Of a stretch of DNA of 64,000 nt, positions 23,186 through 30,578 are shown piece after piece. A program made the translations under genes and the position numbers. The notes beneath the pieces are model-generated. The model did no database searches. It was given only the letters and a program-made list of their open reading frames with translations, and had not been told where the DNA came from. Each line of letters starts with the position of its first letter. The first letter of the stretch is position 1. The DNA comes from Tubulanus polymorphus (lineage: Eukaryota; Animalia; Nemertea), in assembly GCF_964204645.1 (NCBI RefSeq), contig NC_134026.1:30228150-30292149 (forward strand), in the 5' to 3' direction.

Positions 23186-23344
23186 ATGTCGACTGAGGCC
23201 GCAAATACGTGTGGAAAAGCGCAGACGACAGTTGTACCGCCGAGACGACCCCAGACATCAGAAGAGACGTCACGACCTCGCCTGAGTTCGCAGGGCAGTT
23301 TTCATGAATGTACCCAACACGACACAGCCTGCGGGGCTGCCGTG
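23186..23344 (+). CDS. Profilin alternative N-terminal exon A (53 codons, MSTEAANTCGK...CGAAV)
   Basis: Acceptor tttttttctgcag at 23163, AAAATG start, phase-0 donor GTG|GTAAGT matching the phase-0 acceptor at 30168. Confidence 0.6.
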
Positions 23345-23730
23345 GTAAGTATTCAAGAAAATATGTCGATACATATTTTCAGAATTGCACATCTTTGATA
23401 TTTTTTGTTCGTATAATTCAAACTGTCGTGTTTAGGCAGGATGCAGTACGTGACCTGTACCAAATCAACACACACAATGATATTCAAACAATTTCCTGTT
23501 TCTTTTAGTTTTTTCTTTTTTACCATTTGTAGCATATTGTATATCTGGTATTACTGGTATTAAGCCCTGGCCTATTTTACCGCTCCTGATTTTCTTAGTT
23601 TAACCTATAAAACTTTTTTCCCCGAACTTTTTCTCACTTTCACTCGCTAAATTTTTCGTTTCGAATCCCCAAGTTTGTCCAAATATTTTAAGTCGGTGTG
23701 ATTTCCTATAATAGACTTCGTCGTTTGTAA

Positions 23731-23858
23731 ATATATATATATATATATATATATATATATATATATATATATATATATATATATATATATATATATATAT
23801 ATATATATATATATATATATATATATATATATATATATATATATATATATATATATAT
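23731..23858. repeat. (AT)64 microsatellite
   Basis: Read directly. Confidence 0.98.
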
Positions 23859-24857
23859 GATAATTATTTTTCGGGTCATTCATAAACCAGTATTTATATC
23901 TAGTAATTATGCTATGAATAGATGAAGTAACGCATAGCTGCCTGCTCAACAGTACATAATATATATATGCAGACCAGGGTTTTTTGTGTTGAACTGAAGG
24001 ACTGTTTTTAGTACGAAGGAATTGAACATTTAGCTGCACGTACTTTTAAATCTTTGTGGTTTGCTGTAATAGATTACATCATACACATTTATTCACGTGA
24101 TGTTGAACCGTTCGGAGAATTTATTCGGTAATACGTGTGTAACACTTATTCTTGAAAAGTCGAAAAGTTTACTTTTGAAACGTGCAAATACGATTTAGAG
24201 AACAAAACAAACCAAATGTTGGCGATAAAATCTAATCATTACTGTTACGATTTATGACGAGAATTTACACTACTGCTGATATTACGGATTTACAAGTACA
24301 ACCAGCTAGCTATATATAGTAGACTAGAGGAAGCGTATTACAGCACTTCAAATTCAGCTTTTCACCTACAATTTCGGAGACTCAACTACTCGTGGATCGA
24401 GTATATTTACAACTATCGAGACAATAAGTTAGTAATAATTCGCATTTGCTGTGATCAATAAGTGAAAATAGTGTGGCAGCTGGAGAATTGTGAAGAAAAC
24501 CTGTTCGCAGAGAGACAGAGAGAAAGAGAGAGAGGGGTCCACTAGAATATACAGAGTGTTGCAGCTTCATCCAGTACATATGCTAGCGTACTGTGTACTT
24601 GTGTGTGTATTTTTGATTGTTCCAAGTTTTATGTCACGCAGCTGAGAGGCATAGAAAATAATATCGGTCCTCTGTCGCCATCTGGTAGAAATACAAAAAG
24701 CAGGAATCGACTGATTTTGTTACGGACAACACAAAAGCACGTTTGACTCGAACGTACGAGTCTAGACTAATTACTATCAAACATACATTGACTCGAACTC
24801 GTAGAAAAAAGCTCAGCTTGTGAGACGTTTTACTGCGAAAGTTGAAAGATCGAAAAG

Positions 24858-25223
24858 ATGTCGGCCACGGATGTTGCAGTCGCCGAAGATAATCACCAAC
24901 ACGCTGAGCCAAAGAAATCATCCGGATTGTTTTCTTGTTGTCCGTGCGTTTCCGGCGGCAAGAAAAAGAAATCGGCGGCGAAAAAGTCGAAAACAACCGA
25001 AGAACAAAACGATGCAAATATCGTTGTAGAAGATCAGATAACAGTGGAAAGAGTTGATGCAGTGGATGCGGCCATTAAAAGCCCAGACGGACGGGTTCTA
25101 GTTGTACTTCCCGACGAACCCGATGAAAATAAAGATAAAAAGAAGAAGAAGAAGAAGGATAAGAAAAAAGATGACGAGGTAACGGGTGCAGACGATGTTG
25201 ATGTTGAGGTGGAGGATGATGAG
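24858..25223 (+). CDS. Profilin alternative N-terminal exon B (122 codons; Cys cluster, polybasic and acidic segments)
   Basis: In-frame TGA just upstream of the ATG. Encodes GLFSCCPCVSGGKKKKSAAKK...KKKKKKK...DDE. Phase-0 donor GAG|GTAGGT. Confidence 0.7.
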
Positions 25224-26794: not shown

Positions 26795-29574
26795 GTGAGT
26801 TATTGAAGCATGCGTGCTTTAGGTTTAATGTCTAGTTGTTGACTACGTTATACCTGTCTTACTCTGCCTCCATATGACGACATTCATTTCCCCTTTGTTA
26901 ATTCAGTACTCTGTTTTTTTTGTATGTATAATTTGACTTCTAAAATAAAGAGGTTGTGTATATAGATATAGTAGCAGTTAACACAAGGTTCCATTTGTTC
27001 AGCTGATATGAAGTGTATCGCACACGGCTGTGACGTTATAGATGTATTGGTTATTAATGAATTGATCAATTCTGCTGCGTTAAAAACGAGAAATTAATAT
27101 CTAGAGAACGACGACGTACTGCGTATATTGAAATCCTACTGGATTAATGTATATATGATTTATTGTCCATTTCATTCCCCGATGATAGACGCCATTTTGT
27201 GCAAATGTGCCAAGTTTTATGTCAAACTACATCGCTGCCAGTTTAGCAGAGCAGCTTTAGCGAAGGGGCTCGCTCATTGAGTTAACCCCCCTGGTTAAAT
27301 TAACGTAATACCACCCTTTAAAACTGACCCTAGATTTTTAAAACGATGCAGACTTGAGAATCAAGGGTTCCTGGTGATTTTGAATTAATAAACCGATGTT
27401 GTACGGGGAATACGTAAGGACATCGACTCATGGTGTCACAAGTGTTGTTTGTATATACGTAGATTAGACTGTGTGGACACGAGCTGCTGCTGTTGTATGT
27501 CGCGTTACGTCTCGACTGAGATATGAATAATGAGATACAACATATTTAGAAGACGCCTTATAACAGCTGTCATATTACTTCCACTGTAATAATTTAACAA
27601 TCTATCAATATCGGACATTCAATAACTTAAACAAATTCAATTCATATTCAATAATCATGATCATCCTCTTTATATACCCCACATAGAAACCGCCCCAGAG
27701 AGATAGTCTTTGGGATATTCGTTTGAGTAATTCTAAACCTCCTTTTTTAAAAATTAAGTTGAATGCAGCCTAATTTAGAACGTACGTAAAACTTGGTACA
27801 TTTGTATTTGCACAAAATGGCGTCCACTTCAACTGGACACAATGCTTTTTTCTTTATTGAATATCTAATTCTACCTGCTGTATTTCCAATGCCATGGTAT
27901 TCTAGTCTATCACATATTGATATAAGCCTGATAATCATCGCGATCCTCTGTAAGTTGAGTTAGTATTTTCACAGTATATGCCCTCAAAATGACGCATGTC
28001 ACGTGGTACTATTGGATTTGCATCTTGACATCCACATGAGTCACGTGTGTTGAATTTTGCTTTGTTTTTGTTTTTATAGCTTACTGAATATTTCAAAAGC
28101 ATCTTTTAGTCTATTAGCTCATCTGTTAGAACCGAATCGATTAAGAGATGATGATATAAGATATAATGATGTATGTACGTGAAGATGTGATATCGATGTA
28201 TTTGTAACAGCTGGTTCTCAGAGACATCAATACTATGTTTCTTCTACTTCGGTGAATAATTTAATATTTTCTTGATGTAACATCTGATGTAGCTTTTGTC
28301 GCGTTTGTATTTTATTAAATTCACGGAGTCATTTACGAACCCATTCAAAAAAAGGAAAACTAAAGAACGTTTCATTTTGCCTGATCGCACTGTCCATCAG
28401 TCTCGACATTACAGCATCACATTCCTACATGGGATGCTGTATTTATACTCGTCAATATGGGAATGAGTACTTGATAAATGGGCGCGAGAATATACCACCA
28501 TCATATTCATTCAGGATCGCGTTAAAATTGCATGTCATAAAACTCACTAGCTGGATGACGAGCTTAATGAGTTCAAGTAAAATGTACAATCACACGTCCC
28601 CAGCTGACTGTGACTAGCGAGGCTATTGAGGCAACTGTCGATGTAGGCTACACGATGCATGATGTTGTTTTTATCCGGAGGACGAGAGTTTAGTTGAATT
28701 CATCTGCCCCGTTAAGGGTTAATTTATCAATATTTCTCTGTTAGTATCGGAAAAAGTAGAATAGTATGAAATAGATCTTACGCTGCAAGGGAAATACGAT
28801 TTTTCCAGCCAGCTGACAATTGACAGTATATTAAAACCAGTCTTGCATATTTTAGTACAATATTCAGCTGCGAACAGACTCTTGCACTGCTAGAAGCTGT
28901 ATGTTGTTACTGGCAAAATTGTTTCCATTTGATTGGATCCCGGAAACGATAGATGAGCTGGCATATGACGTAACTGTTCTATTTGACTAGATTCATATAA
29001 TATATGCATTCGTGCAGTTAATGTTTAATTCTCTAAACAATATTTAATGCGATAAACTTAATGTATGCGTATGCGGAAAATCAGGCAATTTCGTAAATTG
29101 CAAAAAATCATCAGGAAAAACAATGCTCTCTTGAGGATGCTGGCGTACGAATCATGAATAGCTTATGAAAGTAGCGCGGTTGTATTTAGTGTTTGGAGAC
29201 GGATTTCGAATAGATGCGTTGTTTTTATTACTGCGATACTAATTAGCGAATGGCGATAAAGGCGAACAACATCATCGTTTGTTACTGAACCCCAGACAGG
29301 GGCTTATGTAAATTGGAAATTCAGACAAGCTGACGGGAATCATATAACACACCACAGTATACACCACATCAGTGAGGTGGGGCTGGTATTGGAAAGTCAC
29401 CTGAGATCGGTCTCCGAAATCTGAGATCTCAGTGAATTATCTGTCTGTGCCTGCTGTTTATTAGTGAAAATCGAAAACCATGTTCGCGCTATATTAGGAG
29501 CTACTAGAATGGTTCTGTATGATTTAACGTGTTTTTAACGAGGGATTTGTAAAATAGGAGTTAAAAATCGAGAT

Positions 29575-29748
29575 ATGACTTGTTTGCCGTGTTGTCGATT
29601 TTTGTTCGGAATGACTCGGAGATCATCGGCAGCCGATCAGACTAAAGAAGACGAATTGGGTTTAAATTCGTCACCTGCTAATGGAGAATATCGCACATTT
29701 AAATCGGCTGACGGGAATAAAGAGAATACTGATGACGATATATCATCG
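29575..29748 (+). CDS. Profilin alternative N-terminal exon D (58 codons, MTCLPCCRFLFG...)
   Basis: In-frame TAA at 29536, phase-0 donor TCG|GTACGT. Confidence 0.7.
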
Positions 29749-30167
29749 GTACGTTTCATTTAGTTTTGATTCAGGAAATCCGGGATTTATTTTTAGATAT
29801 GTTTTCTATATACATGTATGTACATGTATTCATGCTTGAAATATTTGAGTTTGTAAATCGATGTTATATGATTATACGCTAGACTTATTAACAGTATCTA
29901 TCTGTCTGCACCTCTCGCGTCTTCTTTTGTACTCTGAAAATATCCGGATCCAACGACTATTTCATCATCAAAGACGTTTATCCAGTTTTACGTCATTACC
30001 TTTTTATATCCAAACAAAGTTATTTTTCATAATAAACTTATGTTGAAAAAATGCTTTGATATCGCGTTATTTCGACTCGTCTTTATCATGTATCAATCGC
30101 GACGACTTTTTACTTTGCGATTTATTTTTATTTATACCTAACGATTTTCGATGTTGCTTATTTTCAG

Positions 30168-30578
30168 GTTGAAAAGACGAAGATATCGTCAATGTTTGAG
30201 AATATCGTTAATCACAGCATGGTCGGAGGTGGTACACTGAGTAAAGCCGCAATCACTACACAAGAAGGAAACATCTACGCCAACTGCCCGGCGGATTTCC
30301 TGCCCACCGTCGATCAAATACAGCTTCTAGTCAACGCCGTACAGGATCCGAATCTTATACAGGCTGATAAAGGTATTTGCCTGGGAGATATGAGTTTCAT
30401 GTATAAAGAAGGGAAGGATGCTGAGAGTATATATGGTATAACGGCGGATGGAGACGGCGGTTGTATCATCATTAAAACAAAACGATGTATGATGATAGGT
30501 ATTTATGATAAGAAGGCTGACGACGCGCGCACCCTCGTCGAAGATTTAGCTGATTATTTGTGCGGTAGAAATCTGTGA
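30168..30578 (+). CDS. Shared terminal exon encoding a divergent profilin domain
   Basis: Acceptor ttattttcag|GTT (phase 0). VEKTKISSMFENIVNHSMVGGGTLSKAAI...GICLGDMSFMY...GGCIIIKTKRCMMIGIY...VEDLADYL matches the profilin pattern (KAAI, G-x-x-L-G, KT...IGxY, VExLADYL). Confidence 0.88.
   Translation, partial: VEKTKISSMFENIVNHSMVGGGTLSKAAITTQEGNIYANCPADFLPTVDQIQLLVNAVQDPNLIQADKGICLGDMSFMYKEGKDAESIYGITADGDGGCIIIKTKRCMMIGIYDKKADDARTLVEDLADYLCGRNL

Follow-up and report, generated by a model that had tools for sequence, protein, structure and literature searches.

Background

How a single exon with the profilin fold can be joined to four different N-termini is the question raised by LOC141900045, a gene of the nemertean Tubulanus polymorphus. 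The gene lies in a stretch of 64,000 nt (from here: the window; assembly GCF_964204645.1, contig NC_134026.1, positions 30,228,150 to 30,292,149), whose own numbering is used throughout, and comprises four ATG-initiated exons (A to D) and one profilin exon, all on the plus strand. Profilins are considered to be small and soluble, with phosphatidylinositol 4,5-bisphosphate (PIP2) as their route to membranes and polyproline as their route to formins and VASP. An earlier reading of the window (from here: the original prediction) had proposed that alternative promoters produce differently targeted, partly lipid-anchored profilin isoforms. Here we report that this cassette, in which alternative first coding exons precede one constant profilin-fold exon, is almost certainly real, and we discuss what its tails and its divergent domain may do.

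Results

Anatomy of the cassette

The constant coding exon (30168..30578) is opened by a phase-0 acceptor at 30168 and encodes 136 amino acids (aa) plus the stop codon; nine residues lengthening helix 1 are followed by the profilin fold. Two RefSeq proteins contain it with 100% identity, isoforms X2 and X3 of LOC141900045, both annotated as uncharacterized, which have exactly these 136 aa in common. RefSeq isoform X2 (XP_074642851.1) is identical at every residue to exon B followed by the constant exon, and RefSeq isoform X3 (XP_074642852.1) corresponds to exon C plus the constant exon, the sole difference being an Asp run of 8 residues instead of the 19 in the window. This run (26686-26745) is a microsatellite within coding sequence whose length varies between haplotypes or assemblies. 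Downstream follows a shared 3′ untranslated region (UTR; 30579..31600), covered by a contig of sequencing run X2 (30167-31600) that extends past 31600; AATAAA motifs occur at 31080, 31718 and 31905. No second profilin exon was found in the window by tblastn.

Each of the four upstream exons is ATG-initiated, open, preceded by an in-frame stop and terminated by a phase-0 GT donor, and every coordinate that had been predicted for their starts (23186, 24858, 26420 and 29575), donors and common acceptor was confirmed. Exon A (23164..23344, coding from 23186, 53 codons) is rich in Ser, Thr and Pro and has no obvious anchor. The coding part of exon B (24858..25223, 122 codons) contains Cys27/28/30 with a Lys run, a second Lys run and an acidic end, while that of exon C (26420..26794, 125 codons), for which the RefSeq model is the basis, includes 50 Asp or Glu residues. 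Exon D (28998..29748, coding from 29575, 58 codons) begins with Cys3/6/7, followed by hydrophobic and basic residues. The predicted isoforms A to D comprise about 189, 258, 261 and 194 aa, respectively.

Among the 766 GT sites between 17146 and 30167, the donor of a leader exon upstream of exon A (see below) ranked 1st, followed by those of exons B (2nd), A (3rd), C (5th) and D (16th). A to D are the only four ATG open reading frames (ORFs) on the plus strand of this interval that have 50 or more codons and run into a good phase-0 donor, compared with 0.16 such ORFs on average, and never more than 2, in 300 Markov simulations; the thresholds for ORF length and donor quality in this comparison were set after the exons had been seen. 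The minus strand of the same interval holds no such ORF.

An array of tandem paralogous variable exons, as in UGT1 or the protocadherins, was considered and rejected, as the exons are not homologous duplicates and exon A is unrelated to all others. A short motif is common to exons B and C (24990-25127 and 26420-26605; p = 0.012 for the whole exons, p = 0.0002 for a hand-picked core); it consists of Ser/Thr-Pro-Asp-Gly-Arg followed by hydrophobic residues and hints that one exon was duplicated from the other or that both may bind one partner. For exons B-D the similarity had p = 0.007, over 22 aa.

Splicing to the common acceptor

Junctions were searched in contigs from four public sequencing runs (X2 to X5) over 26750-31600, and a second placement used runs X2, X3, X6 and X7 over 17200-23700. 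Runs X2 and X3 come from different studies; their GT..AG joints and empty introns suggest that they are RNA, which is not on record. The junction of exon A to 30168 was present in both of these runs and that of exon B in run X2, in which two contigs entering the constant exon carry the final 30 bases of exon A and exon B, respectively. Exon D was likewise joined in run X2 (contig 28998-29747 to 30167, GT..AG, 419 nt skipped), and run X3 contains an 8-letter loose end agreeing with this junction. Hence, of the four junctions that had been predicted (from 23344, 25223, 26794 and 29748 to 30168), those of A, B and D were observed in contigs, while that of C is given by the RefSeq model XP_074642852.1. 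Together, the contigs (A, B and D) and the RefSeq isoforms (B and C) show 5′ coding exons that exclude one another and are each joined to the same downstream exon.

In one respect the original prediction has to be revised. Exon A, thought to be a first exon, is preceded by an acceptor at 23164 and forms the second exon of its transcript: in run X2, 19873-20224 is joined to 23163 (GT..AG, 2938 nt skipped), and a single contig consists of 19873-20225, 23164-23344 and the constant exon from 30168. The non-coding leader exon of isoform A (19873..20225, its 5′ end being the contig start rather than a mapped transcription start site) contains five short upstream ATG frames, none of which reaches the coding frame.

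Runs X4 and X5 read through the donor of exon C, cover pieces of introns, show palindromic linker ends and have no joints; we take them to be proximity-ligation DNA, hence their read-through is no evidence against the junction of C. Run X7 yielded nothing over 17200-23700 and run X6 nothing on the gene, so that both are uninformative.

A divergent profilin-like domain

The constant exon matches the Pfam profile Profilin (PF00235) above the cut-off (E = 1.6e-19), and its alignment-based structure prediction reached a predicted local distance difference test (pLDDT) value of 95.8. When compared by Foldseek, this predicted structure resembled Acanthamoeba profilin (1acf) with a template modelling score of 0.85 and a root-mean-square deviation (rmsd) of 1.3 Å, at about 32% sequence identity to Acanthamoeba profilins I and II.

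The ligand sites have diverged. Of the five aromatics of the polyproline site, named in PMC2694148 and transferred by us from human to Acanthamoeba numbering (W2, Y5, W29, Y119 and F125), only Tyr119 is retained; in a pairwise alignment the Tubulanus residues are F10, I13, Y37, Y130 and L136, so that by sequence the aromatic groove is not preserved. Among the 88 canonical rows, 73 have Tyr at Y5 and 70 have Trp at W29, compared with none of 25 extended rows in either case (five of the 25 have gaps at Y5). Acidic residues (E81, E86 and D126) stand at the positions of the basic R71, R75 and K115, while Y89, G90 and K105 are kept; PMC9527652 served for the ligand-site residues only, and the K80/K81 columns fell in an alignment gap and were left out of the counts. 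The net charge of the Tubulanus domain is −7, the canonical median being −1 (range −13 to +13). Moreover, canonical rows have a median of 2 residues before the first Trp, and the isoforms of 189-261 aa are not small single-domain proteins of this kind.

Binding of polyproline has therefore probably been lost. Loss of actin binding is less sure, because the basic sites vary among canonical rows as well, with Arg or Lys at R71 in 50 of 88 and at R75 in 43 of 88. Classical profilin function appears doubtful because most of the polyproline-site aromatics and several basic surface residues are lost. The original prediction treated the domain as an ordinary profilin, which holds for the fold and the PF00235 match but not for the polyproline groove; "profilin-like" is a more fitting label for the gene than "classical profilin".

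Relatives and the comparison with Lineus

A full HMMER scan yielded 125 matches including RefSeq isoform X3 itself. For phylogenetic trees 8 repeat-bearing matches were dropped and 6 rows failed a domain-length cut; 113 rows remained, including the query and two matches from word searches. In a quick tree 25 rows were split from 88 canonical-looking rows (SH-aLRT support 97), and a careful tree with 20 of the 88 canonical rows drawn at random gave the same split with support of 100/99. This shows a divergent group and not its origin, since the rows outside it may hold no animal canonical profilin or PFN4. A 12-row subgroup around Tubulanus was dismissed, as it does not form one clade in the careful tree. 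Another profilin-like subgroup, of 13 proteins (P0028, P0037, P0040, P0048, P0052, P0071, P0075, P0080, P0092, P0098, P0112, P0141 and P0142), had support of 100/99; several of its members start with Met-Gly and have Cys clusters (predicted myristoyl plus palmitoyl anchors), and 8 of the 13 have Arg in place of the conserved Trp29.

The named members of the 25-row group are only Tubulanus, two genes of Lineus longissimus and Macrostomum lignano. N-terminal extensions are common: 16 of the 24 relatives have 21-287 residues before the first Trp position, two have 7-10 and six are without the start of helix 1. Intron read-through is suspected in three of the 16 long relatives, two of which end exactly at the position of the Tubulanus acceptor, which suggests that a phase-0 intron is conserved at the junction of the constant exon. 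Among 14 N-termini picked as non-intronic, a Cys cluster occurs in five, a Met-Gly start in five and either of them in seven, two of these seven being near copies.

Lineus longissimus belongs to another nemertean class than Tubulanus. Its gene LOC135486121 has two isoforms (X1 and X2) with 138 common C-terminal residues that differ only upstream and diverge at most one residue from the Tubulanus junction. One tail is a Met-Gly (Gly2) tail with 15 Lys or Arg in 39 aa (XP_064624723.1), while the other is 28 aa long and contains 6 acidic and 4 basic residues; both isoforms are gene models and not observed junctions. The design of alternative N-termini thus seems to be echoed in a second nemertean class, with two tails at the equivalent junction rather than four and without homology between the tails of the two species.

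Tails and predicted membrane anchors

Cys clusters with basic runs are a general sign of S-palmitoylation. Read as motifs, without a predictor, the tails of two isoforms fit this pattern: exon B contains a predicted S-acylation cluster with a basic run at residues 27-38 (24936..24971; Cys27/28/30 and Lys35-38), and exon D a predicted N-terminal S-acylation or amphipathic anchor at residues 1-16 (29575..29622; Cys3/6/7). We consider it fairly probable that exon B or exon D is acylated. Lipid anchoring and differential targeting are predictions, which are made more likely by the Gly2 or Cys-cluster N-termini of relatives. The tails add 62-134 residues to the profilin domain, up to the length of the domain itself, and are likely disordered, as judged from their composition, given that a single-sequence prediction for isoform B (pLDDT 41.6) could not be used.

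Surroundings in the window

Upstream of the cassette lies a multi-exon gene on the plus strand (5700-17145) with a Neuralized domain (E = 2.2e-39); by eye it also has Roc-type GTPase-like and death-domain-like exons and an apparent CaaX-like Cys motif at its end (17145). In the interval between the two genes a run X2 contig covers 17221-18477. Multi-copy or inverted short repeats, indicated by many partial contigs and self-matches, occur at 17216-17269, 18960-19305, 20322-20420 and 23731-23858, and the intron between exons A and B contains a long TA run. Downstream follow a single-exon galactosyltransferase (32750-33739, plus strand, E = 3.9e-44) and, recognized by eye, a trypsin-like protease with an Ig domain (34314-36911, minus strand), an aminergic-type G protein-coupled receptor (41064-42038, plus strand) and an acetyl-CoA synthetase (58411-63062, plus strand).

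Discussion

Proposed function of the exon cassette

According to the explanation that we propose, four alternative first coding exons of a single gene are joined, one per transcript, to a constant exon with the profilin fold, and the choice of promoter would set the location of the product by giving each isoform a different, likely disordered N-terminal tail. Isoforms B and D would be held at membranes through S-palmitoylation of their Cys residues, helped by basic residues, while A and the very acidic C would be unanchored. The domain would not be an actin shuttle feeding formins or VASP but rather a tethered adaptor or a weak local actin binder, because it is without most of the polyproline-site aromatics and several basic actin and PIP2 residues; a lipid tail would then replace PIP2 binding as its route to membranes. 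Taken as a whole, with the cassette, promoter-chosen tails, membrane anchors on B and D and a non-classical tethered domain, we hold this explanation to be somewhat better than even.

Several observations weigh against it. The junction of exon C to 30168 was found in none of the four runs, with runs X2 and X3 having no cover there. RefSeq isoform X1 and any isoform with exon A or D were not retrieved by word-based protein searches, an absence that is weak since these searches also missed the Lineus relative with 46% identity. For isoform X1 it is conceivable that A and B are chained via an AG before the ATG of B, or that it has a micro-exon like the 9-aa insert of isoform X1 of Lineus LOC135486120. 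For the latter gene, the closest relative (46% identity), the two isoforms retrieved have the same N-terminus and differ in this insert. Neither Lineus gene is sister to Tubulanus in the careful tree, so the shared design could be parallel. Conservation of the tails between species was not detectable (4 of 56 pairs with p < 0.02, none < 0.007). The variability of the basic actin sites in canonical rows, given above, belongs here too, as do the following points on the 5′ ends: the contigs do not map transcription start sites; the contig placements covered 17200-23700 and 26750-31600, between which the coding starts of B and C lie; the exon B contig starts, judged by its length, at about 24854, 4 nt before the ATG, which also fits an upstream splice; the 577-nt leader of exon D contains 16 ATGs, unusual for a true UTR; and the placement over 17200-23700 had 51 loose ends and 120 pieces beyond those listed.

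Some of these points could be accommodated if all isoforms had one promoter and leader in common and splicing picked A, B, C or D as the second exon. Exon A is indeed a second exon, the exon B contig begins about 4 nt ahead of AG|ATG, and besides its 16 upstream ATGs exon D has an acceptor-like site at 28991, 7 nt before the contig start. The original prediction is probably right in denying B, C and D a compatible acceptor, but for B an AG sits directly before the ATG, in phase 0 and after a purine-rich tract. Against a common leader, the isoform A contig crosses the donor at 20225 unbroken in run X2, where the B and D forms were also assembled, and no other joint leaves this donor among those listed. 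The exon D contig is unspliced from 28998 onward and has no loose 5′ end among those listed (2 further loose ends are unlisted), and of 19 positions, 6-12 are pyrimidines at the acceptor-like sites within or ahead of B, C and D, compared with 14 and 16 at the two used acceptors. We regard a common promoter as improbable. Because of the unbroken leader contig of A and the unspliced start of D, these two exons likely use different promoters; separate promoters for B and C are inferred. Hence the contigs speak for alternative promoters, as originally proposed, in the case of A versus D with their different 5′ regions, and overall it is probable that separate promoters pick the tail.

Even with real junctions, the upstream exons might be only leaders or neutral appendages and the functional protein start at Met 30192. 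The tails are of low complexity and not conserved between species, the tail of exon C tolerates an 11-residue difference in its Asp run, and 6 of 24 relatives are called without any extension. However, part of helix 1 is missing from these six short sequences too, a pattern that gene calls starting at an internal Met would produce. The four long open phase-0 frames have good start contexts, with a purine at −3 in all four, compared with T at −3 of Met 30192. In the alignment-based model helix 1 spans residues 2-19, including 8 residues before that Met, so a start there would cut it, and the nine residues upstream of the canonical start, which contribute to this helix, are also the point where the similarity of relatives resumes. 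The weak −3 context of Met 30192 and the earlier beginning of helix 1 make translation from this Met alone unlikely, and we give very little credence to the account as a whole. A stronger competitor, although still unlikely, accepts the isoforms and regards the domain as a working actin-monomer-binding profilin whose tails regulate it by autoinhibition, oligomerisation or charge and carry no lipid anchor. The fold is intact (rmsd 1.3 Å to 1acf), Tyr-Gly of the actin-facing strand (Y89, G90) is kept, the tails exit from helix 1 beside the polyproline groove, and there are precedents: as far as the consulted parts of the sources go, the N-terminal extension of heimProfilin modulates ligand binding (PMC8410842) and that of Arabidopsis PRF3 causes oligomerisation (PMC13203320). 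This account is at odds with the recurrence of Cys clusters or Met-Gly starts flanking basic runs in relatives and with the absence of the polyproline-site aromatics across the divergent group.

Relation to known systems

Compared with classical profilins (Acanthamoeba I and II, PF00235), the gene shares the fold, the Pfam match and about 32% identity but adds 62-134 N-terminal residues from alternative exons and is acidic at R71, R75 and K115. Vertebrate profilin-4 (PFN4), according to the parts of PMC2694148 used here, has lost its ligand sites and binds neither actin nor polyproline; it resembles the Tubulanus domain in its fold and in a polyproline site reduced to the C-terminal Tyr. PFN4 is short, however, and binds phosphoinositides via basic residues, whereas the Tubulanus domain is acidic and has modular tails. 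The extensions of Arabidopsis PRF3 and of the Heimdall and Thor profilins are single and fixed (up to 25 aa in Asgard archaea), and the sections of PMC13203320 and PMC8410842 at hand mention no alternative exons or lipid anchor; the Asgard profilins still bind polyproline. In Lineus, the uncharacterized RefSeq genes LOC135486121 and LOC135486120 belong to the same divergent group and have the same junction position; they are taken as members of this group rather than as orthologues.

Variable first exons themselves are known. According to the excerpts available, first exons direct the targeting of plectin (PMC3695321), and delphilin, with its forms alpha, beta and L, has a palmitoylated N-terminal splice variant (PMC6004577). 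Both join alternative 5′ coding exons to a common exon, with short N-termini that target the protein or are palmitoylated in one isoform only. Plectin and delphilin are, however, large multidomain proteins, whereas in Tubulanus the constant part is one small single-exon domain with tails of up to its own length. In the consulted text of a profilin review (PMC8387879), splice variation in animals is given for PFN2a/b only and the term palmitoyl has no match. A literature search of titles and the beginnings of abstracts, with partial coverage of subscription papers, found no paper on lipid-anchored or alternative-first-exon profilins. The arrangement is already in RefSeq as unnamed isoforms, but was not found described.

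Tentatively, these genes may represent an unrecognised spiralian profilin subfamily in which the polyproline groove was lost and lipid anchors were acquired. A conserved plug-in junction before helix 1 would allow alternative promoters to swap palmitoyl, myristoyl/polybasic or acidic tails as a switch between membrane and cytosol. If true, exon choice would select a covalent membrane anchor, a novel means of positioning a profilin fold within the cell, and one constant domain with four natural tails would provide a clean system for asking about the role of non-actin profilins such as PFN4.

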